Source of the DNA: Catajapyx aquilonaris
Taxonomy: Eukaryota
Assembly (NCBI GenBank): GCA_000934665.2
Contig: JYFJ02000115.1
Location: 62,001 to 126,000 of the forward strand
Length of the DNA: 64,000 nt
Direction of reading: 5' to 3'
Numbering within the stretch: position 1 is the stretch's first letter; the number at the start of each line of letters is the position of its first letter. Positions 6,797 through 41,034 of this stretch are shown one piece after another. Both the position numbers and the translations under genes were made by a program. The notes beneath the pieces were generated by a model. It was not told where the DNA came from. It made no database searches and saw only the letters and a list, made by a program, of their open reading frames with translations.

Positions 6797-6860
6797 GCGA
6801 AAATATTCGCTGAGATACAAACAATAATTATTATTGTTTGTCTATCAGCGAATATTTTGC
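6797..6860. repeat. Imperfect AT-rich palindrome (hairpin)
   Basis: aaaatattcgctga..caaacaataa / ttattgtttg..tcagcgaatatttt. Confidence 0.75.
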
Positions 6861-7019
6861 AATTTACAGTAATTGGAATGGAAAAGTTGCATTTTATTCA
6901 GATAATTATTGTCTGAATAATTTTCATTGCAATTAAATTATTGCTCTTGCCTTTCGTTACGGTATAGTACCTAGAATTGTAGATTCTGTACATCAATATT
7001 CTAGGTACTGTAATTACGG

Positions 7020-7266
7020 TACGGTATTTACTCTCGTGACGTCACGTCCGGGTCCGCTTAGGCAACTATGACACTTGAATTCTAAATACATATTGCATTG
7101 CGCCGATTGGGCACACATTGTTATGTGACTAATGCAATTTTTATGTAATTGCAATTAAATTATCCCATTACAGTACGGTATCCACGCTAGTGACGTCACA
7201 CGTAACCATTTCTAAACGGTCCGCTTAGGCAACTGTGATGACACTTGAATTCTAAAAATATTGCAC
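7020..7266 (+). repeat. Degenerate direct duplication containing a CRE-like site (TGACGTCA)
   Basis: tacggtat..gtgacgtcac..ggtccgcttaggcaact..atgacacttgaattctaaa..tattgca occurs at about 7020-7097 and 7174-7265. Confidence 0.75.
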
Positions 7267-7670
7267 AGAACAATTTTATTTACAAACAGTGTTGAAAAAT
7301 ATATACTGATATCTATCATTTACGGTTGATTCGTTTATTCCAAATTTAAATTAGCGAGCTGGCAACCTTGGTTCAATTGAAGCCGCATAGTGGACGCCAT
7401 CTTCCTACTCCCGGCTATCACGTGACCCGAATCTAGCGCTGTGATTGGCCTGATCCAGCCAGGCGCTCCAAGATGGCCGCCTCCTTCCTCCCCTAGAGCG
7501 GGTAACTGCAGGGTCACCATCGTGACAGAATCCACCCACCCACCCACTCTCCCTGTCCCACTGCTTTCTATGCTCGTGGCGGGGCCCCAGCCGGTGGGGG
7601 AAGGCGGGGAGTGCCGGGGGGAGGACGCGCGGGCTTCGATGAGTCAGGCACATGCAGACGCTCGTTTTCA

Positions 7671-10600
7671 GCTAGGGTGCCAGAGGAGGTTGGTCGGTGT
7701 GTGTGTGTGTTTGGCCCCTCGCCCCCCAAAAACTGCAGCGGAATGCAGCGGACTTGCCCCAGCGCAACCCATCGGCCCCCGCAGCCCGGAGCAGCACGGC
7801 CCCTTGGCCGCCCCCACCAGCCCACCAGCAGCGGAGCAGCGTGGCCCCTAGGCCACCCCCAACAGCAGCCCCATAGAACTAACACACGTAAGTGTGTTCC
7901 ATGTTAAATTGTTAAATTACAACCATATTCGGGGAATTAATTGGGACCTGCTCCTGGGTGCAGCATGGCCCCTTGACCTCCCCCACCAGCCCACCATCAA
8001 CGGAGCAGCTTGGCCCCTTGGCAGCCCCCACCAGCCCACCAGCAGCGGATCAGCATGGCCCCTAGGCCACCCCCAACAGCCCACCATCAACGGAGCAGCT
8101 TGGCCCCTTGGCAGCCCCCACCAGCCCACCAGCAGCGGATCAGCATGGCCCCTAGGCCACCCCCAACAGCCCACCATCAACGGAGCAGCTTGGCCCCTTG
8201 GCAGCCCCCACCAGCCCACCAGCAGCGGATCAGCATGGCCCCTAGGCCACCCCCAACAGCCCACCATCAACGGAGCAGCTTGGCCCCTTGTCCACCCCGA
8301 ACAGCCCACCATCAACGGAGCAGCACGGCCCCTTGGCAGCCCCCACCAGCCCACCAGCAGCGGAGCAGCATGGCCCCTAGGCCACCCCCAACAGCCCACC
8401 ATCAACGGAGCAGCTTGGCCCCTTGTCCACCCCGAACAGCCCACCATCAACGGAGCAGCACGGCCCCTTGGCAGCCCCCACCAGCCCACCAGCAGCGGAG
8501 CAGCATGGCCCCTAGGCCACCCCCAACAGCCCACCATCAACGGAGCAGCTTGGCCCCTTGTCCACCCCGAACAGCCCACCATCAACGGAGCAGCACGGCC
8601 CCTTGGCAGCCCCCACCAGCCCACCAGCAGCGGAGCAGCATGGCCCCTAGGCCACCCCCAACAGCAGCCCCATAGAACTAACAAACGTAAGTGTGTTCCA
8701 TGTTAAATTGTTAAATTACAACCATATTCGGGGAATTAATTGGGACCTGCTCCTGGGAACAGCGTGGCCCCTTAGCTGCCCCCAGCATGGGGAGTGGCGA
8801 TGTGGCCTGGGAACATAACAGATAAATGTCATGTCAGCGTGACTGAACTTACGCTGTTCTGTGATGAGTTTGTGGCCATTTGTTTGCACTCACTGTTGTA
8901 ACTGCTTTATATTCTTTCATAACCTTATTTCTGCGAGTACCTGACCAGTCTCCAGAATTTTTGTGCCCTTGGTTATGTGAGGGTAATGAGGACCACCACC
9001 TCATTATCCGCTGGCATCCCAATCGTTTGGAAAGGCTGTGATGGAAATGTATGGGTGTGTGTGTGTATGTATGTATGTATAACCTCATTGAACAAATTGT
9101 GTGTTACTTACCTCTGAATTCTTCATTATACTTTCATCCTTTAATATTATATTTTGATTATTTATTGCAGGTACACCAAAGGAGGCAAAGGTGGCAATGG
9201 AGCATGATGTGGCGATGTTGGCCAAGTCTGTGGAGGCAAGGAATAAGTAAGTTGGTGTATGCATGAATAGCATGAGCACAAAAAAATTTTACTCTGCTAC
9301 TGTCACACATGAAGGCATAATAACTCAACACACTGTACAATACTCTGTGCAAAGGAATGCTCATGTGTGCCTGGATAATAATCAGATAACGCCGATAATC
9401 GGAAAATGGTCCTATGATTTTAAAATGAGCTATTCACAGGTTTTTAGCGAACTACTGTACTGTACTTGTATACTATGGTGTGTGCTGCTTTAAATCAGGT
9501 TCTATCAAAATTATAAAACTTGAAACATAATTTTAATTTTTCTGCTGAAAAAATGCGTACATTTTTGTGTCTGCAAGACATTGACATTCTTTCGGACATT
9601 TTTACTTTAGTTTTTTGGCAATGTATGGATTATCTGCACCCAGATAATCGGGAGCACAGTGTAATTACTCTTTGCCCTTACTGCTTTCCCAGTTTAACAT
9701 GCCTAGGTACATAATTGCCATTTTTCTGCCATCAGGCCACTGCGGGGATGTCTAATTGGAACCAGCCTGGAGAAGTATATCCTTCCGCAGCGGCTCGTGC
9801 CCACTGGGGAGTTCTGCACGTTCAGCTTCCCAGGGGGCACCCTTGCCTCCATGGAACATCTAGTCCACCACTTGGCACATAGAGGAGGGCTGGATGTCAT
9901 TGTGCTAAGTGGTGGAACAAATGATTTGGCTAACATCGCCACCAAAGCCAATCCCCTGGAGATGGCAAGAAAAAAATTGAAGGAGTTGAAGGGCTTCATC
10001 ACGATACTTCAAAAGGCAATGCCCTCATGCAGGCTTGTCGTGTGTGAGGTACCGCCGAGGGTGGAGAAGGTCACACGGCAAGTCCTGCATGAGGGATTGC
10101 GGCGCTTTTGGAACCAGCGGCTGAGGAAGGTGTGCCAGGACACACGAGTGTTCCTCCTTAAGATCAGCGTGAGTTTTTTATTATAAAATTTCCATGAGGA
10201 TGCAATTACATGGAATTTTAATTTTGCTCTACAGCCCATTGCGCGGAAGCGGAAGCTGAAGATGATGCTGGCATGTGATGGTGTGCACTTTTCTAAGAAG
10301 GGGAGCAAAATCTGGGCCAGCTTGCTGAGAAATGTGCTAAAAAATGTGCTGAGCCCAGATTTTGCTCTACCTAGAGTCACACAAGAAGTCCTGGGTGTCC
10401 CTGCCTACCAAGTTGACTGGTGTGACGATTGTCACACCAGGGGACATGAGATGGGAACCTGCATGACCTTTCTTGGAAACCTGGGGTATGATTATAATTT
10501 CTGCATGCTGATTTTACATTCTTGCTTGGGTTATGCCATACTCTTAAACTGATTATTTCTTCTATCAGATGTGCTTGGGGTGGAGAAAAATGTCAGATGT

Positions 10601-10671
10601 GCCGCAGAAAGAGGCCCCCAAACCACCATGGCAACAACAGCAGAGGGGGAGGATACAGGCGGCGTCGATGA
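7671..10671 (+). CDS. Spliced gene for a repeat-rich SGNH/GDSL-hydrolase-domain protein with CCHC zinc knuckle (exons about 7671-7887, 7964-8686, 9171-9246, 9736-10168, 10235-10485, 10569-10671; start codon uncertain, possibly ATG 7743)
   Basis: All junctions are GT-AG and phase-compatible (1,1,2,0,2). SGNH blocks LIGTSL, FPGG, GGTNDL, DGVH; then CDDCHTRGHEMGTC (CX2CX4HX4C); C-terminus CAWGGEKCQMCRRKRPPNHHGNNSRGGGYRRRR*. Confidence 0.75.
7788..8790 (+). repeat. 45-bp minisatellite (16 units in the main block, higher-order 90/135-bp structure) plus a duplicated 75-nt intron
   Basis: Unit ggagcagc(a/t)tggcccct..ccc(c)(a/c)(a/c)cagcccacca(t/g)ca(a/g)c; block ccccatagaactaac..gtaagtgtgttccatg..gggacctgctcctggg repeated at 7869-7958 and 8668-8757. 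Confidence 0.95.
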
Positions 10672-11608
10672 AGGTGTGCTATTATTTCCCATAAGCCAGT
10701 TGGTCCATCCCTTTCATTGTTGGGCATAAGATCTATTTGGTTGCTCTGAACTAGTGCTGAGCAGCCCAAAGGTGAATATGTGTCTCTGATGCATGCATGC
10801 ATCCCTTGGCATCTGGTATCCATCTGACATCTGAACTATATTACCCGCTTCACAAATCTAATCATTTCAATTGGCATCAAAATTGCACTAACTTGCATTT
10901 AAAAATCCAAATCAGCCTGATTCAAGAGCTCTCTTAATGTAATGATTAATAATGATGCCAATGTGTAATAAAATAAGTCATGCTAGTTGACTTCATGTAA
11001 GGTGCATAAACATATGTTAGGAAAATGCCTTTGGTGACTCTTGTGCTTAGTTCTTTTTCTTTGTTCTCTTTTCAGAAGCTCGTGCACACTTCCCACTGCT
11101 CTGCATGTGTGCTGCTTCCAGGGGTACAAGGCAGTTTTTTGTAGCACTGTACCAAAGACCAAGTGCAAGTCTGACATGTAAATGTACATTGTTTATTTAA
11201 GTTTCACCTTTCCAATAAAATAATGTTACATCCACTTTTGAGTCTTGATTTTCTTGCAGTCTTGAGTGGTTATCATGTTGATGGCCAAGAGTACAAGTAC
11301 ATGACTGTACTGGTAAGTCACAATTGGAAATTTGCAGGAGGCCCAGTGAAACAGACATCATTAACTTGTAATTTAGTATACCACTAATATGGCATAATTA
11401 TTGACCCCAAGTTATAACTGACATATGCATTTATTTATTATAGTACAATGTGAATGAAACACTAAGTGTAAGTGCACAGTATGCATTTTAGGCTCTTTTC
11501 ACAAGATCCCCCTTCACTAAGTTCAAATACAACAAATGCAATCCATAGAAATAAGGTACTTCAGAAAAAGAAAATTGGTGTTGGTGGGGAACATTTAATT
11601 TAAGGGTT

Positions 11609-11873
11609 AATTGAGGAGCCTGAGATCAAAACCGCCAAGTCCACTTGAAATAACTGGTTGTAAAATGAGCAAAAACTGATGATTACTTATAACTTTCAAT
11701 GGAAAAATATTAGAATTTTTTTTACTTCATATGTTGATGCAGTTCAGTTACATAGCCTACATAAATGTTCAATTAATGTACCTAATGACATTAAAATACA
11801 TCACTGCTGCAGGTATTTGTGTTACATCCCCCAAAAGTGGACTTGGCAATTTTTCATATCAGATCCCTAAATT
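11609..11873. mobile_element. Degenerate MITE with about 38-bp terminal inverted repeats
   Basis: aattgaggagcctgagatcaaaaccgccaagtccactt versus reverse complement of aagtggacttggcaatttttcatatcagatccctaaatt. Confidence 0.6.
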
Positions 11874-11936
11874 TCGCAATATTCTGGGCTTTTTCCATAT
11901 CAGAATAGTTCTTACTCACATATACAAAACTTCGAT

Positions 11937-12098
11937 GAGTTCTCTCCGTGTTCACGTGGGTTTTCTCGGGGTACTAGCGTTTCCTCCCACAATCAATCAA
12001 AACCCATCACAGGACAGGCAAATGAATGAAGTTGGTGAATGAAAAGAAGATCCCCTAAAAGGCCCAAGGAGGCCTGTCACGGGGTGTCCATTATTATT

Positions 12099-12142
<44 letters not shown>

Positions 12143-12144
12143 TA
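11937..12144 (+). mobile_element. 5'-truncated SINE fragment with (CAT)n tail
   Basis: ctccgtgttcacgtgggttttctcggggtactagcgtttcctcccaca resembles the conserved core of V-domain-type SINEs as I recall it; followed by a (CAT)n/(TAT)n tail. Confidence 0.55.
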
Positions 12145-12808
12145 TATGCTTCCAAAACAGTAAATTCAGACCTTGGCATCGTTGGTTGAGCATATTCAAA
12201 TTAGTATTTATGAATAGCTCATAAGCTCCACCACCACGTCAAGGAGATGCCGCGGTGGAGTAGTCTTTTTCTACAGGCAAAGACCGTCAACCTCAGGCAG
12301 GTCTGATGTCGCAAAATTATGTCACAAGAAAAACTGCAGAAATGAAAAGCCTGACAAATTAATTTATCCAGTTTTTCACATTTTATAAAAATCTGAGGTT
12401 GATAAGAAGCCATATTATATGTATAAGCTGTGTAATAGAAAAGCTATTTATATCTATATAAAATATTTAGCAACATGCTTAGAATGTTATTATTACATTA
12501 GTGTTAAATGTTTTAAAATAGCAATATACACTATAAATTAATATGAAATAAGTCAATATAAACTACAAGTATATCAATATAGCAGAAATATAGTAACTCA
12601 AAAAATAAAATGTAATGCAAGTAATTAAGTAGGCCTATAATTACGTAGCGTATTAAGCTATAAATTCGACAATTAAGAAATAATACAAGTAAGCCTAAAC
12701 ATACTGGTATGTGATAGCATTTCAATAATTGGAAGACTACATATTATTTTTAAAACTAATATGAAATAGCAGTATACAATTATATCAACAACAAAACAGT
12801 AACAAACA

Positions 12809-13250
12809 CACTTGGTAGCAGGTATGCTAGATCTACAATAATATTCATTACTGCAATCAATGGAAATGTACATGCAACAATAAGGAACAGCAACAATTTC
12901 TTAATAAGACCCTTGCAATACCTGCCTATGGCTCGGACAATCAGTCCGGCACTTGGTAGCAGGTATGCTAGATCTAAAATAATATTCATTACTGCAATCA
13001 GTGGAAATGTACATGCAACAATAAGGAACAGCAACAATTTCTTAATAAGACCCTTGCAATACCTGCCTATGGCTCGGACAATCAGTCCGGCACTTGGTAG
13101 CAGGTATGCTAGATCTACAATAATATTCATTACTGCAATCAGTGGAAATGTACATGCAACAATAAGGAACAGCAACAATTTCTTAATAAGACCCTTGCAA
13201 TACCTGCCTATGGCTCGGACAATCAGTCCGGCACTTGGTAGCAGGTATGC
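12809..13250. repeat. 141-bp tandem repeat, about 3.1 near-identical copies
   Basis: cacttggtagcaggtatgc recurs at 12809, 12950, 13091 and 13232. Confidence 0.95.
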
Positions 13251-13415
13251 TCTAGGTCTTCTATACTTGTTATATGATCAATTATTATCAGAGACAAAGT
13301 TTATAATGAGCAAGCATCCAAACACTGGTGCAATAATTGCATGCATCTAGTCCCACACACAGCACGCACCAACCATAAAGACAGCAAGCACGCAGAAACA
13401 TTTCAAAACTGTACA

Positions 13416-16400
13416 TCAACATTGAGCTGGGACTGATTGTGTTTTACAAATGGAATGGCAAAACCACTTCATGCCCCTTGCTGGTTTCCGTTTCACACCT
13501 ACACAGTCCCAATGGTACCACTTGCCACATCCTTCATTATCGCAACCAATCATGTCTCGTTTTCCTGTCACTACCGCACATTTCCAACACTTCCACTGAT
13601 CATACAAAACCTTCATGATATTCTCAACAGCAAGCCATGCATCTGCAGTGAAATATTCCTTAACACATGTCCAGGTCCTGTCCAACACTTCAGTGTTAAT
13701 GTCATCTAGCTTAGTATATACATGCTTCTCCTCTATCTTGCAGCCAAAATTCTTAAGAGACCGAACACCTTCATCATCGCAGATCATATTCAAAGTTTTG
13801 ACCTTTGCAACTGTAACAAAAGACTTCCTCTTTTGATGTTTAGGAGCAGGAATGCATGGCACTTGCTTGGTGGTATTTGCTGTTGTAGTGTCACCATCAT
13901 GTGGCTCATCGAGACATGCCATCTCAACATCAGATGGATCAGAATCAATGGGTGCTGGTAATGAGTTGGAGTAATTCAGTGTGGGCAGGACTACACTCAT
14001 CTCCACCAAGAGGTCATTCGCTTCTTTTAAGGTTGGCTTACTTAAACGAGCAGTGCGAATTTGTGCCCTAGGTTTCTTTGTGCTGGTAAAACAACGCACT
14101 TGCCTGTCAATTTTTTTGTTTGGTGCAGGAGCATGCTGTGCTGCATGTGGGAGAAAACCACCTACTGCCCTGGGTCCCAGCTGCGCATACTTAGACAAGG
14201 TAGTTACACGATTGATGCAATGAGCAACATCTTCCTCTGAATCCATTTGCATAACCTGCTGAATGAGACCCAAGCAAATAGCTTCAAAATGCTCCTTTTG
14301 ATTTTGCAAACTAGTAGCAGGTTTTGAAATCATCTGAACGATTTCTGCTACTTCTCCAGTATTTGCATACTGGTCTGCAACAACAGAGGAAACAGTAGTT
14401 GTTGGTGGTCCCTTCATAAATCTGCAAACCAAGTGCACATGTTTGCAGATGAGACCATGAATGAGTCGATCTTTGCAGGTGCAAGTGAAGTCATGGATAC
14501 AGATACAACAAGCTGAGCACCTTTCTTGGCATGCACAAATCACCCCTGTTCGCTCTACCGAATACTCTGTGCCTGACCCTGACTGTGAAGGTACAATGTA
14601 TCTATCCCCATCAGTACGAATTGTGCTCATGTCCATCCCTTTGCTGTTCGTATGGCGCGACCTTATTAGTCGGATCTTATGTGTCACCTTGCCTTTGGTG
14701 AGCTTGACCAGCCGTTCCATTCCGCATGCATCCCCCATGTCCATAAGCCTGTCAATGAGCTTGTCGATTCGGCGGTTGTGAATCCCGTGCAAATAGCAAT
14801 GTTTGAGGATCTTATGGAATGCCTCTATCGTCATGTTAGTGTTAGCCCCAGCTCCAAGCCTATAGCAATGCGCCCATTGTTCACTCTTGAGTGAATACTC
14901 ACTTTGGAAGTACGCTCTAAACTTCCTTGTGCTATCATCCTGACTTGAGAGCCAATCCATGAACAGTTTGAGCAGCTTCTCATGAAGACCTACATATATC
15001 ATTCGCTTCCAAAACTGCACGCAAAAAGGTGTAAGTTTTTTGCCTAATCTCCTTATCTCGTATCATGTGCAGTTTACCTTGCCAAGCTCTATCGACATGC
15101 CATGCGCACAGCAGCTTCTGTGGATTACCCTTGAACACATGCTTCCATGCCGTGTAATACTGATCAGCACCATCCGTCATAACACATGCAGGTTCAATAT
15201 CTCCAGTCCTGGCATGCACAGCAAGAAAAAACTGAACCAACAGGGCCTGGTCTTCCCTGTTACTAAGGCACCAGGCAACTGGGATACCTTCACCAAACTC
15301 ATCTCTTACGACAATAGATATCAACTGAAAATCATAGCTGTTGGTCCCATGTGTTGCGTCAAGAAATACCACCTTACTTGGTGCAAACTTTTCCATCATG
15401 TGACGTTGGAATTCAGTTTGGATGACAAGAATGAAATCGCCATCAGCTAAGTCATTGCTATTAGCACCCTGTTGTTCACCCTGAAACTTAGCAAGGAGTA
15501 CTGGATTCTTATCACCCATGTCTTCCATTTCCTTCATCCACATCAAAACACTGGTGGCATCGTCATCATGGCGATTGCCATGCCCTGCAATCCCATATGA
15601 CTTACCGATGTTTTTGATATCATTTTTGGTTAGTAAGTTCATTCTATGTAAGACGCCATCACCACTATTGAGTTTCTGTGCATCATGCAAGATAGTGTCC
15701 TTACTTAACTTGGCCTTCAACTGGTGCGCAATTAGTTCCCTGTCATTGCCGCTTAGTGGTAGCAAACCAAGATTCAGATCATGCCCATAATGTTCATTGC
15801 AATATGACACATGATATTCACCAGACAAGTGGTACACCTTAATTACCATGTGTGCAGTGCAATGCCTCTCAATCTTTCTGCTCTTGTGAAAGTCATTTCC
15901 TACCTTTGCCCTGCAATTTCCTGACCTGTTGCAATACATACGTTTAACCTTATAGTCAGTGTACCTAACAGTGCCAGTCATTTTCACAAAACGTGTAGTG
16001 GTCTTTTGTTCTAGGTCTGTCTTCCAAGTCTCAAAATCTGCCCCATCAGTAAAGTTTTTCTCTTGCATGCAGTAATTGTCATAGTCGTGAGAATGGCTCA
16101 AGTGGTGCACGAGGTCTTTCACAGTCACAAAAGTTCCGGTACAGTCTTTCTCTTGACATAGTATATGACGCTCATTTGCGTCAATTACCAGCATGTCCTT
16201 GTGGTCAGTCTGAATGTGCTTGTCAATGTCTAAAAACGTTCCCGTGCAATACTGGCAAACACTACCAAGAGAAACACTTTCATCTTCTCCCTCGATAGCA
16301 TTCCCACATGTTGCAATACTATCGAGAGCAGTTAGTTCCTGTGGAGAAGTAGTGCCTGTGGTCGTTTCATTCCCCACTAGCTGATTCTGATCATTATGAA

Positions 16401-16623
16401 TCTTCCGATGTCGATGGAGACCCTGCTTGTATTGAAAATCTTTGTCACAAATGTTGCATGTGTATGCGCCCTTGACCTCGTCTTTGACAGGGTGTCCATT
16501 CTTTCCCTGACTTCTGTACTTGTGCTGCCGAAGGCTGTGATATTTGTTGTAACTCTTACTACAAACCTCACATGTAAATACCTCATTACCAAGGCAAGGC
16601 AAACCAGATGCATGTTGCGCCAT
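13416..16623 (-). mobile_element. Mutator-like (MULE) DDE transposase with N-terminal C2H2 fingers, SWIM and C-terminal PHD finger; single frameshift at about 14990-15000
   Basis: ORFs 14980-16623 and 13416-15020 overlap: C2H2 fingers (e.g. CNICDKDFQYKQGLHRHRKIH), WRKY/GCM-like CNRSG..CTAH..HYGH, MULE core FLDATHGTN / MTDGAD / CAWHV / TIEAFH, SWIM CTC..CKH, PHD CWKC..CDNEGC..WYHWDC..WFCHSIC. Confidence 0.9.
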
Positions 16624-19585
16624 GATGCAAATTCATATGCAGACAAAATCCCACAAAAAATTGTTCAAAATACAAGAGTCGCTGAAAATAAGAACTACTG
16701 TATAATATTAATGCAGGTGGTGATGTATACGTCACCAAATCTAGTCTAGGCGTTCCCCTTGGCCGCGGCTGGTCCCAGAGATCCGACAGTGGTGTAGCAG
16801 AAAAACCTTCCTATGCTACCTCAACTGAAGGAATGAGGATTGAGGAAGCTAGGGTACACAAAATGATTCACAGTATTGGCGACAGTATGTCTAGACGCAC
16901 CACGTGACCCACTGCAGTCTATGAAGGGGGTTTTCAGGGATTTATTTTTCTATGCCTCACTTTTGCGAATAGAGTCAATTATTGTACATTCCTGCTGGTC
17001 TTCATGAACACAACATTTTAAATGGTTTCTCTATAGGCCTATTATATAGTTAATGCGTAGTCCAAAACTTTGAAAAATCAATACTTCTTAGTTTTAACAA
17101 ATATATGACTTATTTCTGAATGCCATGGAATTCTTTTCTCCCTGATCGGCAACAGGAGGGATTAAGTGAGTCATCCCTAGAGCCCCAAGGCCAAGGGTGA
17201 CGGCAAGAAAGCTGTTGCTTTGACAAACAGGGTGTCTCACAAGTCTGAACACATAGGTATAATTATTGGATTGTACAGTTGGTTGCCAGTTGTGCCAACT
17301 CCAAGAACTGAACCTGTCAACATATAGTATGTCGATAAACTGCTACAGTGTAGTTGTCACAACTGAAAACCAAACCAACACTATACATTCTACAATGCTA
17401 TTATCTGTGTGTCCAGCACACTGTCGGGGACTTCGGGTTACCCTGTAGGCTGACAGAGTACTCGACACGGCTCGCCAGTAAAACTGTAAAAATAGTTTTA
17501 AATTATGATACCATATAGCTGTGTGTGGGAGGATAGACAATGCCTTCTTTGAAATAGCTGATAAATATTTTGCCTTATTTATATTTTGTTATTGTTTTCC
17601 AGTTATATCGTGAACTGCCCCGTTTCTCTGAAATTAATGAAAATAACATTTTGAGTTAAATAAAAATCATATTTAACATGCTCAAAACGCTTAAATTTTA
17701 AATACCTTCCATCGTCATATATTAGCCTACTCCTCATTCCTGTCATTCGGTTTCATATACATATGCAGGTGCTAGATGAAAATACTACCCTCACCTTTAT
17801 GTCAAAGATATGCACAAAACTGCCATGCCAAGCAAGAACGCAGGAACTTACATTGTTTTTCTATTTAGTTACTGCGTTCTTGCTTGGCAGGGCATAAAAC
17901 TGATGTTTTGTGATAATGATATCGCATTGAAAGTTCCCATTTTTAATGACTTGGATTGGGAAAATTTTGCTTTCAATCAAAATTTAAGCTGAATAGTAGC
18001 CTATTCGAAAAACAATTCGTGCTTTTGCTATAAGATAAAATATCGCAAGACAACTAGAAAAATAACAAAAGCCAATAATGCACACATGTGCCTTATACAT
18101 AGGGCGACAGTTAGTGCTTTGTTCCATTCAAACAATAATATAGTGCACAAAGGTGAACCGTGTTTAATCAATCTGGCCAGAGATTTTATTACAGCCTACA
18201 GCGAATAATATCACCGCTCCATAACTTCTGGAATTCTACGACCAAATAGAAGCGGGCTAATATTAGACGGCCGGACCAGCAAAATAGGAAGAAAAAAAAA
18301 CAACACCAGCACCCTTTGTTTCTAGGAATGAGCTAATAACGGTTTTGTTTAGAACATGGCGTTGTAAATATGCACTCCTATTATGGGTAAAATCAAAGCA
18401 TTTTTACCAACAAAAATCTGGAGCAGAAAAGTGAGGTAAGCAAAAATAATGACTATAAATGCAATATATGGGCGATTGCGAAAGTACATCTTTGTGAGTT
18501 TCTAGTTTCTATGCATATAATTATGGTAACCAATAATAATTAGTCTACGGTACTATTTTTTTTTCTCAATACCTCAAAAAAAAGGCGTGCGTGGTTTACC
18601 CCCAAGTTTACCCACCTCGCTCAAAAAACAAAAGAAAAGACAACAAAAAGCGAGTTCAATAATATGCCTGGAAAGTCCGGACTAGTTCCGGCATTTAAAC
18701 CAATTTTTACAATTATGTGGCGCCTTCCCGATCTTGCAATAATCACAATGATTGACCTTATTTGATGAAGGAAGGAGAAAAAGTGAGACGATGCTGCATT
18801 GCATGCATAAATTGCATTCTTTGCCATTCTAGTTACCTATATGCAACACTGCAAAATTGTGAATAGCATTATAGGCTGTTACATGCAATTCAGCCAGTCC
18901 ATCATTTCCACCAGATTATTTAGGATAATAAGGGCATTTATTGTGTTGTTAACCTGGTGTACACCGCCGTAATGACATGACCACGAGCTACAGCAAAAAC
19001 GAATAGGCAAGTAAGGACCTATGTCACGGGTAAAGATTTATTTGGGTCAAGAAATGTCAGGAAACGGCAAGGCATGCCATATCCCAACCCGCCCGTTGCA
19101 TTCCAATCTCTTTTCGTCCCCTCGACGCCTCCACGGGTTTGCATTCTCAAGCAGACACATGTGACATTCATGGTGTGTGTGTGTCACGCTGGGTGGGTGG
19201 GAAGGTGGCGGAGAGGGGTCTGGGAGGGACGGGGGAAGGAGGGGAGGCCTTCCCATCCTCCCTCTCTCCTTCTGTGGGCCCCGCACAGCGCGTCGGAAGG
19301 CATGAACCATTGAGACATGCGCCACGCACCTCTGCGCACACCCTGACGTCACAGTGTCACAATGGTGACTCTGCGAGTACCTTCTCGTTTCCTCCCCAAC
19401 ATCCGGCTTCAACCTTCTTTTGCCAACGGCCTTTTTCTCTTGTTGTTGTTGCCTCTGGCAACCGTTTTCGAACACTAAAGAAGAAGGGCGTGTGAACGGA
19501 CTTTTGATCCGACATCTTCTATCGCTCCCCCTCGTTGGAGAAAGGATGAGCACCACGGCCTGCTGAAAAAAGGAAGGAAGATCCA

Positions 19586-22500
19586 ATGATGGGCCGGGCG
19601 CTGAAGGAGCTCCAGCAGGTCCATCCGCACAACAATGCAACGAAGGACAACAATGCTAAGTCGGAGGCGGCCACTCCTTCCACGGCTGTACCGACTGAGG
19701 AGGAGGACTGCGCTTTGGTGGAGAAGCTGCGGTGGGCCAACTGGGACCAGTACCAGACACTGGTCCGGATGCACCTCTCATTCGCGCTGGATCTCGCAAC
19801 GGATGAGTACGTACACCACCGCAATTGCAACATGCGCAGCCCACTTAACGGTTTAAACCGCAGGTGGGATTGTTCATCAAGCGGCGGGAAGAGCGAGAGT
19901 CGCCAGGCCAAACGGGTGCTGACTCCCTTCTCGTCCAAGAAAGGCAGCAACGCAGGCGGTGGAAGCGGAGGATGCGGCGGAGCAGCAGGCGGAGGACGCG
20001 GAGTCAACCTGACTCAAGAAGGAGTCTGCCAGGCATACCAGCTGATAGAGTTCCTCTCACGTGAAGACAGTACGTCATTTGCTGTGAACATGTACATTGC
20101 GATAATCGCTACCGATTGCTACTTTGCAGATCTGAAGACCGAGGGGCTTTTCCGCCGGTGTGGGAGGCTTGCCAGGCAGCAGCAGCTGAAGACGCTGCTT
20201 AACAGCGGATCCACTTTGAATCTGGATGCGCTGGAGTTTACGGTTCACGAGGTGGCCTGCGTACTGAAGGGATTTCTGGCAGAGCTGCCAGAACCGTTGC
20301 TTACCGAGGCTCATTACTCGGTTCACTGCCAGATAGCAGGTGCATGTTATAGCAAGTGTAGTGCGAGCCTCGGTGCTCAATGATCACATTGTTTTTCAGA
20401 ACTAGGCACCTCGTCGGATGCTTCCGCACACTCTCCGCCGAGGGAAGATTCGACTCACCGCCGGCAAGTGCGCTCGCTCCAGCTGCTCTTTCTGCTTCTC
20501 CCGCCATCCAATCTGCAGCTCCTGCGTGACCTACTGTCCCTGTTGCATCGTGTTGCCTCCTTCTCGCACACCAACCGCATGTCTGCACTGAATCTGGCGA
20601 CGATGTTTGCGCCGCATCTTCTCCATCCGAGGCGGCTTCCCATCGAGACTGTCCAACAGAAGGCGTCCCTGCTGACTCGTGCAGTTTGCTTTATGGTAGA
20701 GAATGCCACCAGCCTTTTTGGCATACCGTTGGAGCTGGCATTGGACGTCCGAGCCTACTGGGCAGGCCAGCAGCAGAAGGAGGGCAACAATGGGGAGGCC
20801 AGCACTGTGTTCAGCTTTGTTGATCGTGCCAAGACGGCGGAGGTGAGCGCTGGGAGCAGCACGGAAGTGGCTCTGGCGGAGCTGTACGCCTACGTGCAGG
20901 CACTGCCGGAGTCTGGTCGCAAGAGGCGTTTGGTCCGGCAGTTCAACAAGGAGAATGGGGTTGGAACGCCTGCGCTGTTGCATCGAGGGGTCGGGGAGAC
21001 GACCAGCAGCAGCACTGCGGAGGACGCGCAGGGTGGGTCCGGCATAGAGGCCAGGAGGAGAGTGCGCAGCAGGAGCTTCGGAGAGTCCATCAAGGTGAGG
21101 GACTGGAAGTCAGTTAATTCTCCAGCCAAAATGTTCAAATGCATGGTTTTCAGCTGAAGAAATCAAACTCCTGTAGTTCTCTGGAAGATGTTTGTTGTAA
21201 GAAGAATCTTCGCGATCGCTTTCTGAGTTGCTATCAAGTTGGAAAGGCTTGTACTGCTGCACTGGATGAGTGGGGAAGAAAATTAACATTCGTGTGCCTA
21301 CTTTCTTTTTCAGAGGCATTTGTTCAGCCGTCACAAGCACAAGACCGGGTCAGGGACTTCTTCCTCGGCACACTACACCTTACATCGTGCCGCTAGTGAT
21401 GATAACATACTGGTAAGTTACTGCCAAGCCGTTAGTGGTTGTCAGGACTGATCACGTTCTTATCTGCGCAGACTCCAACTGAGCCGTGCTCGCCTCCGCC
21501 AGCGAAGTTGAAGCTCTTCCAAAAGAGCGCCGAGAGCCTCGACTGCGACCCGGACCCTCCCCGCTACTCAGCTTCGGCCGCTTTGGTGGACGATCCACCC
21601 GTGGCAATCAAGGGTCCCAGGTGCCTGTCTGACTCGGCTCTTTGCTGCCACGATGACGATTACGCTCCTTCTCCCACCTCCTCCACCTCGTCGGAACCAG
21701 CCTCCTCTTCGTCTGGGAACTCGGCCCCCTACCAGTGCAACTGCGGGCGCACCCGCATGCTCGGTATGCTCAGCTGCATCCTCCCCCGGTGCAGGCAGCT
21801 TGGTAACCACAGTCACCCTGTAGCCAGCAGTGCAGTGGTGGCCAAAAGTAACCTCCATGCCGCTGAGCGCTGCTTGACTCCGCCCACTGAAACCGCTACT
21901 AACAGCCAGGTAGTGCTAACCCCTGCCGCCACCGCCGCCACTCCTGAGACCGCCAGCAATGCTAACACTAGCTTGGTTTTGTCGCCACTCACGCGCTCTG
22001 CTCAGAGAATGCCGCGCATGCTGCAGGTGAGGCTTCAAAGGGCTAAAAATACTAACCACGCTTGTGCTTTTCGGCTTGTTCGCATGCTTTTTCAATTCCC
22101 CAACCTTCACATTCCTCGTCTGCTTGAATTTTTATCCAGAACGTGCAAGGATTTGTTCATCGTTATACATGTGTCGTTATTCCAGGAGAGTATTCTAACT
22201 CCGAGAAACCGCCGGCCGCTGGTGCTGATGTCAAGCTCGGACCTTCCGACTCCGCCGACTCCAACAAGCATACTCGGGGGTGTGGGCGGAGGGGTAGGGA
22301 TGTGCCAGACTCCCCTGGGCAGCCGCTTGCACCCAGGCGCTGGAGATACCAAAGCCTGCGGGGATGGAGCGGAAGAACCCTTCAGCGACAAATTCCGGAG
22401 GTATCTCCTGGCTCGGCACATGAGTCCCCTGATCCCGGCAACAACTGGTGCCAGCCCCTCCTCCCCAATGTCAAGCGGAATTGACGAGGACGACAGCGGG

Positions 22501-23095: not shown

Positions 23096-23872
23096 TCAGT
23101 ACATGTCGTCTGGACCGAGATCCACTGTGTATTGGAGGCCACGTTCCCTGAGAGCCCTTGCCCTCAGCTTCTCCTTCTCCTGCTTGGCCTCCTGTTCCAT
23201 CCTCTGGGCGTCCAATATCGCATCGACAGTCACCTCAGTCAGCGGAAGCCGATGCTCCTCCATGGGATCCTGCAATAAAACCTGGGCGTATAAACCGCTC
23301 GCTTTCATTGCCCCGTCTCGGCGCTCACTATTTCGCCAAGAAGCACGACATTTTCCCCTCGGACAATGAACACTCCTCGCTCTATGTCGCCGTACTCCTT
23401 CCCGACATGGATACGCTCAATGGTCCGATGCAGCACCAGGTTAGCAAACTGGTCCACGCTTCGGAGGTACCCAATCAGTGTGCGTCCATCCCGCAGAAGA
23501 ACCATCAACTTCTCTGGAAACGAAACACAAAATGTAAGAAAAAACCCTCGGTTTCCAAGTAGGAAACACTCGCTTCCCTCTAATTTTTCTCGGCCTGCGG
23601 TTCGAGACGCACTCGCTTCCCTCTAATTTTTCTGGGCCTGCGGTTCGAGACGCACTCGCTTCCCTCTAATATTTCTAGGCCTGCGGTTCGAGACGCACTC
23701 GCTTCGCTCTAATTTTTCTAGGCCTGCGGTTCGAGAAGGGCTCGTTTCGCTCTAATTTTTCCAGGCCTGCGGCTTTGAATCGCCCCCCGTGCTTACTGTC
23801 AAGTTCCTCCATGAGACTGGCTGTTCCAGGCAAGCTGTTTTTGGGGTACTGAGGGTAACCCATGAACGACAT
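23096..23872 (-). CDS. LSM1: LSm1 mRNA-decapping Sm-like protein, 3 exons
   Basis: [79 protein letters not shown]... Confidence 0.95.
23567..23772. repeat. 43-bp tandem repeat (about 4.8 copies) in LSM1 intron 1
   Basis: cactcgcttccctctaatttttct(c/g/a)ggcctgcggttcgagacg at 23567, 23610, 23653, 23696 and about 23739. Confidence 0.95.
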
Positions 23873-24100: not shown

Positions 24101-27061
24101 ATGGCTGTCCCTCCAGTGGTCCTCAGCAATGGAGCCAAGATGCCCATACTTGGACTTGGAACATGGAGGGTTCGAAGAATATTTAATCGCACACATTCCA
24201 TTTCAGACCATTTTGCTTCGAGCAATGCCAACAAAGTAGCTCTAGATTATAGAATCAATCCCCCCAGCCGCTAAGCCAGATGTGGCCGGCACGTATCAGT
24301 CGTAAGGTCATCTGAAGGATGTTCATATCCTGTTGGGGAATCCGATTACATTTCATCTGACTGGGGATTGGCATCGCCATTACAATTATTATATTATGAA
24401 AGAAAAACAAACTAAGGGGTAAATCACTCTGGATGTCCGTTGTACGGTATATGGCACCAAGTCCGACAAGTCCAGACCCAAGTCCAACAAGTCCAAGTCC
24501 CAACAAATCTGAGCCCAAGTCCTGACAAGTCCAACCCCAAGTCCTGACAAGTCCAACCCCAAGTCCCGACAAGTCCAGACCCAGGTCTCGACAAGTCCAA
24601 GCCCAGGTCCCGACAAGTCCCGACCCAAGTCCAACAAGTCCCAAGTCCAAGTCCCGACAAGTCCAACCCCAAGTCCCGACAAGTCCAGACCCAAGNTCCA
24701 AGCCCAAGTCCCGACAAGTCCCGACCCAAGTCCAACAAGTCCAAGTCCCGACAAGTCCAAGCCCAGGTCCCGACAAGTCCAGACCCAAGTCCAACAAGTC
24801 CAAGCCCAAGTCCCGACAAGTCCCGACCCAAGTCCAACAAGTCCAAGCCCAAGTCCCGACAAGTCCCGACCCAAGTCCCAACAAATCTGAGCCCAAGTCC
24901 CGACAAGTCCTGACCCAAGTCCCAACAAATCTGAGCCCAAGTCCCGACAAGTCCCGACAAATCCGAGCCCAAGTCCGACAAGTCCGTTGTATGCTCAATA
25001 GCCGAGTGATTTACCTTCTTGACAAAATCAGTGCTGATTCGTTTACTCATATAAGTTTTTAATGTTTCAGTCCAATCCTGGCGAGGTGACTCAGGCCGTG
25101 AAGGATGCGATTGATGCCGGTTACAGGCATTTCGATTGCGCCTTTGTGTATGGGAATGAGGTGGAGGTGGGAGCCGGAATCAAGGCCAAAATGGATGAAG
25201 GGATCATCAAGCGGGAGGATATTTTCGTTACCAGCAAGGTACGTGCTGCTTCAAACACTGACTTGAAAAAATTACATTGGGATTTCGCCTACACTGCGGA
25301 AAACTAAACGGCCATCTGACGTCATCAATGTTTCCACGGAAATGCCGTCAAGAAGCAACAATGTAAGAAACGAAGACGTCAGATCCGTCGTTTGGTTTTC
25401 CGCACTTTAGAATGTGTATAAGTTAAATCAGAAATAAATGTTATCAGCATGTGACTAGGGCAAGAGTCAACTTGGGTTTATCTGGAAGGGAATAACATTT
25501 TTGTCCTGATACGTTTATAATATTATCCGAAGGGTCAAGGTCCAACACATACCATAATTATTCTTTGAAATTATCGGAAAAATATACTAATCGTATTATG
25601 TATACTTTCCCTGGAAGCTGTGGAACACGTTCCATCGTCCAGATCTGGTGGTTACGTCATGCAAGAAGTCTCTGGAGAACCTGGGTCTGACCTACCTGGA
25701 TCTGTACCTGATTCACTGGCCGATGGGATACAAGGTGACGTGAGTCGTTTCTTTCTAAAAAATATTTGATGGCATTTTATGACCTGGGGAAGGGCGCATT
25801 GTAGGAGGGGGAGGAACTGTTTCCGAAAGATGCGGACGATAAGTGGCTATTCAGTGATTGCGATTACGTGGACACCTGGAAGGGGATGGAGAAGTGCGTG
25901 AGTCAGGGGCTGGTCAAAGCAATCGGACTGTCCAACTTCAATGTGAAGCAGGTGGAAAGGGTGTGTGACAGTGCCGAGGTCAAACCAGCCATGGTTCAGG
26001 TTAGATCAGGAGGATTTACTCTGGGGCCGCTTGATTCACTCGGGATTATGGAGTTTGTGTAACTGCATGTGAATTGGTGGCGTCTTGCAATGGCTTGTTG
26101 TTCTGCTTGGGTAGGAAGGTGATGAGCTGTTCCCTATGGTGGATGAAAAGACTCAGTACAGCGATGCGGACTATGTGGACACCTGGAAGGCCATGGAGGA
26201 GGTGGTGGCTTTGGGACTTAGCAAATCGCTTGGACTGTCCAACTTCAGTAGCAAGCAGGTTGAGCGGGTGCTTGCGGTAGCTAAGGTCAAGCCTGTTAAT
26301 AATCAGGTACGGAGCGGAAAGAAGATGCATGCTACAACTAACATGCATGTGCGCTGTGTTGAATGTGTCGTATGTGTAACATCTAACAACATGTTAATCA
26401 CCATCAGTAGTGCAATTAACTAGAGACTTGCTTGCTTCATCGTCAATAACTGCAACCAGCTCAGTTGCGTTCACATGTTTCAGGTTGAGTGCCACCCGTA
26501 CTTGAACCAGCAGAAGCTGATTGACTTATGCAAATCCCGAGGCATCCATCTGACTGCGTATGCGCCTCTGGGATCTCCAGACCGACCCTGGGCCAAGCCA
26601 GGTGATCCCCAACTCATGGAGGATCCAAAGATTAAGAAGATTGCCGACAAGTACAAGAAGACACCAGCGCAGATTTTGCTACGCTGGCAGGTACACTCTT
26701 GCAGTGTTTAATGTGTGTGCCTCAGGTTAATTGGCAGTTTTTGTCTGGCTGCAGATCCAAAGGAACGTCATTGTGATTCCCAAGTCCGTAACCAAGTCCA
26801 GAATCCAGGCCAACATCCAGTGCTTTGACTTTGAGCTGGACAAGGATGACATGAGCCTGATTGACAGCTTCGATTGCGGAGGACGCACTTTCTGTCTGGA
26901 ATGGTGAGTTTATCACGAATTTTACAATTAGCCTTCCTCATTACGACAGGCACAGCTTTAAGATATGTTGTTACAAGTGTAATGAACCAACGCATACTGA
27001 ATTTTAAAAACGTTTCAGGGTGAAGGACCATCCTCACTATCCGTTCAACATTGAGTACTAA
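24101..27061 (+). CDS. Aldo-keto reductase (aldose reductase AKR1B-like); exons 24101-24169, 25071-25238, 25618-25734, alternative 25805-25999 or 26115-26306, 26484-26690, 26755-26903, 27019-27061
   Basis: [68 protein letters not shown]; catalytic D-Y-K-H tetrad present. Confidence 0.95.
24457..24985. repeat. Low-complexity minisatellite built from caagtcc/gac/aac modules in AKR intron 1
   Basis: Irregular repeats of ccaagtcc(c)gacaagtcc.., containing an N at 24696. Confidence 0.95.
25295..25404. mobile_element. Short MITE-like hairpin in AKR intron 2
   Basis: tgcggaaaactaaacggccatctgacgtc versus gacgtcagatccgtcgtttggttttccgca. Confidence 0.65.
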
Positions 27062-27665: not shown

Positions 27666-29378
27666 CTACTTATTTTCCTTATCTTCCTTGTCATCCAGCT
27701 CAATGTATGGCCCCAGCTTCTTCTTCAACTGCTCATATGTAGTCAGAGCCATTTTAAGTTTTGAACTGACTGCATCAAACTTTTGTAGTCTTGAGGAATC
27801 CACGTTCAGCTTAATGGCGTCCAACTTGACTGAAATGAATTAATTTGAAGATCAGAATAGAGTGAAGCGTTTTGTGCCATGTTACTTACTATCCAGCTCT
27901 CCTAGTACTTCCACGGTCTTCTTTCCCTTCATGAGCAGAACTGTTTGTTGATTGGCTTCCTGTGTGTGTCCCCTTGCCTGCTGTTTTAGTGCCTCCCCGG
28001 TGAGGAAGTCCTTCTCACGTGGACTGCCTCTATTAGGCAATGTTTGCTGCCCATTCGCATTGCTCCCAGTGCGCGCCGCCTCATTCCCTGATGGACCGGC
28101 CCTGTTTGGTATCATCTGCTGTTGCACGTTGGCCGCATTGGTCTTGGACTTGTGTCGCTCACCACTCCCATGGACCTTGGACTGCTGTTGTCCACCAGTC
28201 CCGCTGGGCATGGACTTACGTCGCATGCCATTTCCGCTGGGCATAGACTGTTGTTGCAAGCCACTTCCGCTGGGCATGGACTGATGATGCATGCCACTTC
28301 CACATGGCATGGACGTAGGTTGCACGTTGGTCCCAGCCGTCATCATGGCCCATCGCCGCATGTCCCTTGTGTCCCTCGTGAATGAGGACTGATGCCTTCT
28401 GTTCTCTCCCATCATGGCCTGCCACTCTGAACCAGTGTTCCTGGTTTGAAGCCGAGGAGTGCGTGAAGTGGAAGCACCCATACTGCTCTGATTTCTTCCA
28501 TTGGCATTGAGAGAAAAATAGCTGCTGGGCTTCTTGCCTGGGAATGCCATTGGGAATTTGACGCCCTGTTCATCAGATCGGTAGTAATGTTTGTGGGACT
28601 GGTTGGGGGTTTTCAAGAGCTCTCGGGAAGGTTTGAAAGGCTGCTTCACAAGAGACCAGTCATCCCTGTTGTTATCCTTTCTAGCTTCACGCATGTTGCC
28701 TTGGAGGCTGGGAACCGCATAAGTGCTGCTGGCTTGGCGTCGGCTGCCCTCAAAACCTTGGAGCTCGCTTGAAATGTTTTCTTCGGACTGGCTGATCTCA
28801 TCGTCTTGGCACTGGCTAAACATTTTTGCTTGGGACTGGCTGCTCTCATCATCGGCCTGGCTAGCTTCATCTCCCCGCAGCTCTCTGGCTCCTTTGTCGT
28901 CAAGCTGACTGGGATCTTCACCCTCAGACTGGCTGATCTCCTCATCTTGTGGCTCACTAATCTCTTCTGATTGGGGTTGAATAATCTGGTCATCTTGAGG
29001 ATCATTGGGCTTGTCATCTTGGGGCTTGTTGGTATCATCAGCTTGCTCCTGGCTGACCTTTCGAAAGAACTGGCTCAAACTGCCATCTTGGATTGGGCTG
29101 CAGCTGCTCTTGGGAAAGAGCTGGTTGAAACTGCTTTCAGCGAAGCTGCAGCCACCACTAGGAAAGACTGGATTGAACTTGTCGTCTTCTTTAGCTGAGC
29201 CACTGCTTGCATCGGAAAATAGAAAGTTGAACTTATCCATTTGGACCGCAGTGCCCTCGCTGCTGCTGCCGGAAAACATCTGGTTGAACCCCTCCTCCTG
29301 CTGGCTGGCGGAGTTGTCTTGAAAAAACATATCTGCCGCCTCGTCTTCTTCAGGCTTGTTGGAGTGCGGCTCAGCCAT
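27666..29378 (-). CDS. Hypothetical protein, about 550 aa, disordered S/Q/D/E-rich with QQSMPSG repeats and a C-terminal helical segment (exons about 27890-29378, 27666-27829)
   Basis: 517-codon ORF, phase-1 donor GAT A|gtaagt joined to ttcag|TC AAG, giving ..GELD|IKLDAIKLNVDSSRLQKF..KENK*. Confidence 0.7.
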
Positions 29379-30188
29379 AGCCCTACAGTTGAAATAGGAA
29401 TTAATTTTGTTTGTCCAGATGATCAACAATTTCATCTGCGTTTACCACCAATTACGCACCACAGTTCAATGACCTCTGGTACATGTAATGGAATTTCATA
29501 CAACCCGTTCCATTTTGTGTCTAGTTTGTTCCTATTGATATTCTCAATGTTTTACATTATTACTGCCATTATTCAGGCCGCTTGTTCACCTCTGGAATAT
29601 TCTAAAAGATGGGGAGACAGGTGCAGGTTGTACCTGTGGTTCCCTTCCTACCTGCAGGGACCAGTCTGCTCCGGCAATGCCACTGCCGATGCCTTGGGAC
29701 CAACAAGTCCTTTCGAGGCCGCCTCTCTCCTAATTCTGCGAAGAACCGGCCTGATGTGCGACTACCCTTTGGAATGGAACACTGCGAATGGAACGCGGGG
29801 GAAAAATATTTTCCAGGGCGGCAGTGTTGACAGGCCTAATGTGCAACTAGCATCGGGAAGATTTAAATTAAAATATATTTAGCTACTATCTAACAGTAAA
29901 TATTATTAATGGTGAAGTTTTAATAATATATTATTTAAAATGTGCTGAATAAGACACAAGTGGGGGTGACACAAGGTAGCCAGATGCAATAGGCAATATG
30001 GCGGATGAGCGCGGGATTTTGAACTGCTACCAGAATTAATGACCTTTTATTGCCCGAAATGACAAAGAGGATATACTTGTGTGAGCTTTATTTTCATATT
30101 ATTTAACATGAGAATTATTGGAAGCGGTCAGGCTGTAAAAAAAAAGAAAGAAAATCCGCAAATTCCCAAGTTATATTGTGTTCACGCA

Positions 30189-30852
30189 CTAATTCTGACC
30201 ATCCTTGTCATCTGATAGTTTCTTGTCCCTCTTGTACACACAGACGACTTCTTTTTCTGCAGTAGTGTCTTCTATCTCCTGGCAGTCTTCTTCTTCTTTT
30301 GATGCCTGATCGCCACCACCTTCCTCGTCTGCAGCTGACGTGTCTTCCTTCCCGCTGTACTTTTCGTCTTCCTCGTCCTCAACATCTTCGTCGACTTCTT
30401 CGTCCTCGTCCGCCTCATCCTCGATTCCTTTATTCCGACCTGCCTTAGTCATCTTCCTGGCTTTAAGCAGTATGGTCCTCAAGGTGTTCAATCTTTTAGC
30501 CTCCATCTCTATCTGGATTTTTCCAGCTTCACTCGAAGGGTCGTGAAGGGAGCTCACCTGTTTCTTCAGCTCATTGCACTTTTCTAATAAGGAATGTAAC
30601 ATATTAAATGCGACTTGCTCAATACATATCTGCAATAGGAGAGGTAATAAGTGGCTCACTCCTTATGTCCTGCACGCCCCTTCTGAATCGCTTGAGTTTC
30701 AGGCTGGTCTTGAACAACGCCTCTAAGCTCTCCTGGCTGCTGCTGACGCTGCTGAGGCCATCTTGAGACATTGACGTATTACTTGTTGTTGTAGTGCAGC
30801 GGCTAGTGGCTGCTGAAGAGGTCCTACTAATATTTTGACTTTCATCCGCCAT
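30189..30852 (-). CDS. Hypothetical 195-aa coiled-coil protein with acidic tail (exons 30660-30852, 30189-30583)
   Basis: A 76-nt phase-1 intron gtgagc..ccttattag joins two ORFs: ..RGVQDIR|KKCNELKKQVSSLHDPSSEAGKIQ..; paralog at 47416. Confidence 0.7.
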
Positions 30853-37362: not shown

Positions 37363-38003
37363 ACCAATTAATATAACCATGTCCCTAAATATTGGCCATC
37401 TTTGATCTTCGACATTTTTATAGCTTCTTCTTCCAATTGAGATTTTTGCAATCTTACAATACAGTACAATGTTCACTTCTAATTTGGACTTATGCCCAAA
37501 GGTTAATCATTCGATAAAGATTAATCAAAAAAATAATATTCTTGAGGATTTAAGTTGATAGTGTTTTATAATTTATTGGCAAATCCGCGTAAACTTTTAT
37601 TATGATGTGCACTAATCAGTGGATTTGATAATCCTTTGCAGATAATGATTGTGAATGAACAATATTGCTTGTAGTTTTTTTGTACTCTTTGGCCATTTTT
37701 TATTGCCATTATTAAAGTTGAACTAGTTCTTTCAGAAACACTTGTTGTTGTTGCATCAAAATGATATTTATTATTTCTGGTCATGCTGATAGTAACCTGC
37801 ACTCCTGATAATCAATGGGAACAAGATATGATTAGAAACCAGTGAAGTAACCCAGGTTAAGAAGATACAACCAATGGAAATGGCTTATTATTATCACAGT
37901 AGGCCTACTAATATATTATCAAAGTAATGGTAATCTAATCTGAGGATGTGAAATTGCACAGGTGACAAATAGGACAACACGTTAATAGAAAATCCAAACT
38001 AGA

Positions 38004-40892: not shown

Positions 40893-41034
<142 letters not shown>

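Follow-up and report, generated by a model that had tools for sequence, protein, structure and literature searches.

The 64,000-nucleotide stretch of DNA considered here (the window) covers positions 62,001 to 126,000 of contig JYFJ02000115.1 (C43) in the assembly of Catajapyx aquilonaris (GCA_000934665.2), and holds a spliced gene that pairs an SGNH hydrolase domain with a predicted zinc knuckle. That gene is almost certainly the second gene of an 11,895-base-pair (bp) Mutator-like DNA transposon, a passenger of a Mutator-like element (MULE) occupying positions 7494-19388. Six exons on the forward strand, separated by five GT-AG introns of 76, 484, 489, 66 and 83 nucleotides, join in frame, as an original prediction made from the letters of the window alone had it, over 1731 nucleotides into a protein of 576 amino acids with no internal stop. 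The same prediction placed the gene at 7671-10671; its end stands (stop codon at 10669-10671), but its start does not, the first in-frame ATG lying at 7743. The gene is real as read, its splicing being deduced from sequence: in the 285.6-Mb assembly of 20,583 contigs (numbered here with the prefix C), which the genome searches covered, the splice sites of exons 3-6 recur in the same phases in the copies on C8239 and C9839, both open over 286 amino acids, and the gene model therefore goes beyond chance.

Exon 1 (7743-7887) is proline-rich and is taken to begin at that first ATG, its true start being uncertain; it ends in a phase-1 donor, like the 39-amino-acid proline-rich first exon of the copy on C8680, a frame that has a stop in both copies on C1900. 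Exon 2 (7964-8686) is a translated minisatellite (15.7 copies of a 45-bp unit, 7960-8665) whose sequence differs between subfamilies and is not conserved. Tryptophan and proline repeats had been announced for this part of the protein: the repeat exists and proline makes up 20% of the N-terminal 289 amino acids, but tryptophan just 5%. Exon 3 (9171-9246) measures 76 nucleotides in the window, C8239 and C9839, and 75, with a shifted frame, in C5994; the methionine that opens its conserved 3' part may be a real or an alternative start, and in a second family of copies (family 2, below) the SGNH exon itself begins with ATG. All four SGNH blocks are present in the spliced frame, with the residues that had been called intact: exon 4 (9736-10168) holds blocks I-III, with GTSL at residue 323 (Ser325), FPGGT (Gly348/349) and GTND (Asn377), and exon 5 (10235-10485) holds the Asp-x-x-His block, DGVH (Asp474, His477), followed from Cys522 by the knuckle, whose CX2CX4HX4C spacing, likewise foreseen, fits the gag-type CCHC pattern. 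Exon 6 (10569-10671) adds a C-x-W-x4-C-x2-C motif and a basic tail, and a non-coding last exon with an approximate 3' end probably follows at 11076-11235 on the same strand (AATAAA at 11214-11219), its acceptor and signal being kept in C8239. The tail is rich in Arg/Gly in the window and in Arg/His in C8239, and consists of a His/Gly repeat in C10267, the cysteine motif, kept in three subfamilies, being its sole common part. On comparison of the sequences, the conserved unit is one of about 220 amino acids, SGNH plus knuckle. That much of the predicted four-part architecture survives, but the Pro/Trp repeat is variable and the RG tail is not conserved, and to this extent the architecture was overstated.

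The limits of the element are set by an empty site. Contig C15740, found by searching with both flanks, joins window positions 7141-7493 straight to 19389-19857 at 95-97% identity, and because it joins the two flanks directly the element runs from 7494 to 19388. On either side lies a 9-bp target-site duplication read on the forward strand (TTCCTCCCC on the left at 7485-7493, TTCCTCCCC on the right at 19389-19397), of which the empty site has a single copy with one mismatch. C15740 is either an allele that lacks the insertion, which would then be polymorphic, or a second copy of the flank. The left terminus (7494-7528, forward) and the right terminus (19354-19388, reverse) form an imperfect inverted repeat with 25 of 35 bases matching. 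The right terminus is common to C436, C4450, C2630 and C2238, and a pattern search of the genome found nine left ends (a control pattern found one). Exact 9-bp duplications flank two more insertions: a non-autonomous, internally deleted copy of 967 bp with both ends (L052:6460-7427, on C2238), and an insertion with its left end on C4655, where an assembly gap follows, and its right end on C436.

On the reverse strand, at 13416-16632, lies a transposase with C2H2 fingers, a MULE DDE domain (PF10551, E=7e-11) and a C-terminal PHD finger (PF22908, E=2e-5), both Pfam matches above cut-off, together with a Cys/His stretch that by eye looks SWIM-like. The window copy is spread over two frames, shifted by a small insertion near 14,985; on C2630 the transposase is intact, a single frame of 1071 amino acids with D420, D482, CxxH at 504-507 and E597. 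Esterase gene and transposase are convergent, their 5' ends lying at opposite termini, and the transposase ends 2.7 kb past the esterase stop codon, a neighbour that the original prediction had not linked to the gene. By its transposase, its 9-bp duplication and its ends, the element is a MULE: the transposase is of the DDE type, the duplication lies within 8-11 bp (9 bp at three insertions), and the terminal inverted repeats are short and imperfect, such repeats being long in many MULE families and absent in some. The only other long frames within the element are those of the transposase, with no reverse transcriptase, in keeping with what had been noted; between 16600 and 19400, inspected for frames and not by Pfam scan, a search for a third gene gave 18 frames of at least 60 amino acids, none of them long besides the transposase. 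Between the two genes lie a small secondary insertion (11931-12143, made up of a repeat common in the genome and (ATC)n, and missing from C2630) and, immediately 3' of the transposase frame, 3.1 copies of a 141-bp tandem repeat (12809-13251) that is also found in C2630 and C11101. The idea that the transposase is an insertion of its own, beginning at 12144, fails: this edge is that of the small insertion, and homology continues on both sides. A hairpin with 28-bp arms was also seen inside the element at 17821-17894.

Copies of the gene are numerous. Exon 4 has at least 24 matches in the genome on 15 contigs, falling into family 1 (11 contigs, main matches at 58-100%) and family 2 (four contigs, 33-35%), and a second search returned 23 matches, a lower bound, adding three family-2 contigs. 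Introns are common to the copies, as is the spacer on the transposase side. Paralogue number and neighbourhood had been proposed as a check, and in three of the 11 family-1 contigs the neighbour is a MULE transposase in the same convergent layout, once directly (the window) and twice by way of contig overlaps. C8239 overlaps C11101 at 99.5-100%, and C11101 continues into the transposase C-terminus; C10267 and C2630 share 1113 bp at 99%, a stretch whose full-length copies in the genome are these two alone. C2630 carries, with its intact transposase, the right end and a remnant of the 3' end of the esterase gene, while the left terminus is followed by the gene on C8680 and by exon 3 on C5994. 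On C1900 (19400-31900; L017/L018) three partial SGNH copies stand in tandem beside other frames that have no Pfam match; we take these to resemble an EnSpm/CACTA element. The gene had been called domesticated or DNA-transposon-borne. Carriage by a transposon is borne out by the MULE, the 9-bp duplication and the empty site; domestication, with the gene in many copies and many of these broken, is largely refuted at this locus because of the empty site.

Ratios of non-synonymous to synonymous divergence (dN/dS, by Nei-Gojobori) show constraint on the protein. For exon 4, comparing the window with four family-1 copies gives 0.26-0.31, and 0.10-0.19 over the first 66 codons, where 20 of the 51 synonymous sites and 8 of the 147 non-synonymous ones differ between window and C8239 (Fisher p=4e-8; a second pair gave p=8e-5). 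For exon 5 the ratios against five copies are 0.05-0.18, three of them with saturated dS. The near-identical C8239 and C9839 differ in exon 4 by non-synonymous changes only (dS 0, dN 0.012), which is the pattern expected of neutral decay after insertion. Read from these substitutions, purifying selection is evident across copies 60-75% identical in protein, and would have acted during the history of the element, not necessarily on each present copy. It was probably for the benefit of the element itself that the gene was selected. The converse, that a host esterase was captured with its introns, as in a Pack-MULE or in texim, and was kept since some copies help the host and not transposition, we consider improbable. 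The introns are in its favour, as is texim, a spliced SGNH gene on fish Helitrons described as posing the same ambiguity (PMC4021074), and for family 2 and the tick copies described below a MULE link is not shown; yet selection persists over subfamilies 60-75% identical that each travel with a transposase, no non-mobile parent appears among the at least 24 and at least 23 genome matches, and Pack-MULEs as described lack a transposase and carry fragments.

The protein has relatives well outside this genome. Searching 1.84 billion representatives with a profile yielded 74 matches at E<=0.001, five with the knuckle pattern, four of these being proteins of 218-230 amino acids with SGNH domain and knuckle alone. 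A second search gave 37 clusters, 20 of them named Amblyomma americanum, with Ixodes, Haemaphysalis, Dermacentor and Rhipicephalus also represented; a Hyalomma homologue brings the tick genera to six. The A. americanum clusters comprise 113 member sequences, isoforms included, with species checked in the opened clusters only. One cluster at 90% identity has 15 listed members on contigs of eight different lengths, and the near-identical copies of A. americanum, spread over contigs of at least seven lengths, fit mobile cargo. Among 12 full-length outside homologues chosen from the matches, the Ser, Gly, Asp and His are kept in all and the Asn in 11, and of the three cysteines in the knuckle two never vary; as block I, family 1 has GTS, and GDS is found in family 2 and in most ticks. 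The tick proteins (XP_077484989.1, KAM7314221.1, XP_077547684.1 and others) resemble the window protein in having about 220 amino acids of SGNH domain and CX2CX4HX4C knuckle and in lying on the same side of a branch, and differ in lacking a Pro-rich N-terminus or RG tail; in the databases they are unnamed. That branch comes from a 47-domain tree (five own copies and 42 proteins from databases, 41 of these among the 74 matches, with short fragments, repeat proteins and several lower-ranked matches left out), in which the 14 family rows make up one side with support 77/81, a grouping neither shown nor rejected by it. When longer relatives of exon 4 were sought by word index, none of 314 candidates reached E<=0.001, which is weak evidence, and with profile A1 no match came from 140 candidate stretches of metagenome contigs or from 36 of viral contigs. 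In the ESM Atlas the best match to query P0005 (0.89) was an unnamed protein, a lead only.

Models agree with sequence on the fold. Pfam Lipase_GDSL_2 matches exon 4 at E=5e-7 with 30.8 bits, slightly below the curated cut-off of 32.9. AlphaFold was applied to exon 4 and to a full-length tick homologue, P0039. The exon 4 model (predicted local distance difference test, pLDDT, 74) has 85 matches in the PDB at E<=0.001, the 37 listed being without exception SGNH/GDSL-type hydrolases or designs based on such scaffolds; that of the tick protein (pLDDT 86) aligns with PAF-AH (1wab) over 174 residues at Z 19.5 and a root-mean-square deviation of 2.8. The exon 4 region is thus modelled with an SGNH fold, the outcome for this exon of a check that had been suggested for the spliced protein. 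The likeness to the CR1/L2 ORF1p esterase, also suggested, was recovered by sequence: 4C1B, the ZfL2-1 ORF1p esterase, is the top PDB match of a profile built from this genome (E=1.5e-4) and the second of a wider profile (6e-13), in which PAF-AH ranks first (1.5e-13). The OSK domain of Oskar, the other relative put forward, is not the closest. No match to OSK or, as had been noted, to LOTUS reached E<=1 in the three window frames scanned with Pfam, and no Oskar chain occurs among 40 PDB matches of the wider profile or among those of the own-genome profile; the fold searches have neither Oskar nor 4C1B among the rows listed. That the locus is a domesticated, Oskar-like germ-line host gene is scarcely credible: the SGNH fold, the basic tail and one outside homologue (P0002) with a weak OSK score (E=0.019) would suit it, and against it stand the empty site with its target duplication, the many broken copies, the intact catalytic residues and the missing LOTUS and Oskar matches.

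We favour, at a probability of about 60%, the reading that this is a selected accessory gene of a two-gene cut-and-paste MULE, acting like the ZfL2-1 ORF1p esterase, which is described as hydrolysing esters and binding anionic phospholipids and liposomes (PMC3905857). To judge from its residues the protein is most likely an active serine esterase: by SGNH chemistry Ser325, His477 and Asp474 would make up the triad and Gly and Asn377 would lie at the oxyanion hole, and a protein with this triad and these oxyanion residues should therefore hydrolyse acyl or acetyl esters. By analogy with ZfL2-1, the basic esterase domain might attach to anionic membranes or to lipid, with nucleic acid, most probably RNA of the element itself, held by the knuckle and the basic tail, so placing transcripts or complexes where transposition would be heritable (the germ line) or transmissible. 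This membrane-plus-RNA mechanism, drawn by analogy, we put forward tentatively, at rather less than even odds. Wider still, and a long shot, is the idea of an arthropod-wide, unnamed esterase-knuckle family that would give cut-and-paste transposons a Gag/ORF1p-like function, their own RNA being packaged on membranes and delivered to the germ line or other cells, with the tick copies riding related elements. Alternatively the protein could act in the nucleus, as a helper or against silencing in the manner of mudrB or VANC, its knuckle directed at element DNA or nascent RNA and its hydrolase deacylating or deacetylating a host silencing or chromatin protein. MULE second open reading frames (ORFs) with integration or anti-silencing roles are described (PMC6446971), the convergent two-gene layout and basic tail would suit, and protein deacylation is named as a possibility for SGNH proteins (Schneider et al., PMC3905857); the ZfL2-1 esterase is, however, described there as lacking histone deacetylase activity, and the Pfam scans, which included no sequence test aimed at the question, showed no relation to mudrB or VANC. 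Such a helper we consider unlikely.

Several observations weigh against the accessory-gene reading and its membrane-plus-RNA extension. Eight of the 11 family-1 contigs show no linkage to a transposase, the overlap of C10267 with C2630 is not end to end, a transposase fragment on C4956 is arranged differently, and the stretches fetched of C1900, C1941, C1140 and C1295, which are broken copies, contain none. Only one of seven family-2 contigs (C4085) has a MULE, 8 kb off and head to head, and this one (L040:5103-8797) is a different MULE, with a Ulp1 protease and a PHD finger. In the stretches fetched around five more distant MULEs (C3409, C9066, C396, C4293 and C6186) there is no SGNH gene, and not every MULE, therefore, needs an esterase gene. 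In the protein itself, block I reads GTS instead of GDS, and the knuckle falls below every Pfam cut-off, no zf-CCHC model reaching its own, and is poorly modelled (pLDDT about 50). The ZfL2-1 esterase is itself described as not binding oligo-A RNA (PMC3905857), and a cut-and-paste element has no obvious RNA-membrane step. As a separate observation, the 5' frame of the MULE on C4085 opens with a GGVEQNPGP stretch, which we take to be 2A-like.

Two-gene MULEs are familiar: maize MuDR with mudrA and mudrB, yeast Mutyl with mutB, Arabidopsis VANDAL with vanB and vanC, and plant MULEs with an antisense PMD (all in PMC6446971). The present element shares with these a DDE transposase, a 9-bp duplication and one gene more within its ends, and Table 1 of that survey has entries with second ORFs in antisense; the element departs from them in what the second gene encodes, an SGNH hydrolase with a knuckle. 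In the main text of the survey the words 'hydrolase' and 'esterase' do not occur, and 'hydrolase' is absent from two MULE surveys, this one included. With Rehavkus, compared here by its listed features (PMC6446971), the element has in common a 9-bp duplication, a transposase PHD finger and an arthropod-type host, and perhaps the minisatellite, which in Rehavkus precedes the 3' inverted repeat; one ORF is listed there, whereas here there are two genes, and the 45-bp array, which varies between copies, lies inside the second, about 300-470 bp inside the terminus 3' of the transposase. The Spectre clade shares the C2H2 fingers but has an 8-bp duplication and perfect 74-bp inverted repeats in place of 9 bp and imperfect ends, and Pack-MULEs, with host gene fragments and no transposase, contrast with a transposase and a whole gene under selection. 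None of the 112 transposase homologues found bears a clade name.

As cargo, SGNH domains are described from CR1, RTEX and Penelope (PMC3905857) and fish Helitrons (PMC4021074), and also from Terminons. The ORF1p esterases of CR1/L2, RTEX and Penelope (ZfL2-1, 4C1B; PMC3905857) have the same compact domain and full triad, but sit in an intronless ORF1 upstream of a reverse transcriptase, whereas the window gene has five introns, no reverse transcriptase and a DNA transposon as its carrier; it has a C-terminal knuckle where ORF1p of the ZfL2-1 type has an N-terminal coiled coil, CCHC knuckles being assigned in that paper to another (Jockey) class of ORF1p. Texim of fish Helitrons, likened here by description and not by sequence, is also a spliced, multi-copy SGNH gene on a DNA transposon, but one with 15 exons on a rolling-circle element, and the word 'zinc' does not occur in PMC4021074. 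The OSK domain shares the fold, but is listed as non-catalytic (PMC3905857) where the window triad is intact. In the literature covered, outside which lie Repbase, supplements and most subscription papers, we found no SGNH or esterase gene in a MULE and nothing on the tick family; what seems new is a two-gene MULE with, as its second gene, one for an esterase-knuckle protein whose arthropod family has no name.

The element separates a promoter-like stretch (7400-7493, with a CCAAT box and a AAGATGGC motif) from a RhoGAP gene (19550-21157), lying 160 bp upstream of the first long frame of that gene, and may change its expression. The insertion spanning C4655 and C436 directly precedes an ATG-led frame. 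A motif AAnATGGC, presumably the YY1-type motif found near transcription starts, lies within 60 bp upstream of four of the nine left ends (C43, C4655, C5994 and C17914) as against 78 of 21,524 background windows, and these four ends lie about 20 bp or less downstream of it in uniform orientation. The motif was defined after three of those ends had been seen; one of three ends seen later had it (p=0.01). Together this suggests oriented insertion near transcription starts, MULEs being described as typically inserting in or near genes (PMC6446971).

Elsewhere in the window, upstream of the insertion, there are a hairpin with 29-bp arms (6800-6858) and a motif of about 90 bp repeated twice (7013-7265). 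Between host genes lie a 43-bp tandem repeat (23524-23781) and a 22-bp minisatellite containing an N (24456-25002). Two low-complexity genes face apart at 27882-30662, a 519-amino-acid frame on the reverse strand, with no Pfam match, and an acidic frame on the forward strand; 36346-43952 is taken up by three paralogues in tandem, poor in introns, that combine chitin-binding Peritrophin-A domains with Ser/Thr-rich linkers; and a single, apparently intronless frame of 622 amino acids with RING and WD40 domains (50238-52106, reverse strand) is, we assume, COP1/RFWD2-like.

For annotation, the locus is not a new host gene but a transposon that parts a RhoGAP coding region from its probable promoter, and more than 100 'uncharacterised' tick protein records gain a probable identity. 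More broadly, SGNH esterases recur in unrelated mobile elements (CR1/L2, RTEX, Penelope, Terminons and a fish Helitron), which raises the question why, and current ideas on this cargo all lean on an RNA particle or a rolling-circle step. A selected esterase-knuckle gene with its catalytic residues intact, in a cut-and-paste element with defined ends, an intact transposase copy and intact copies of the esterase, makes that question testable, and the pairing of esterase and knuckle may show how such elements help themselves to spread.

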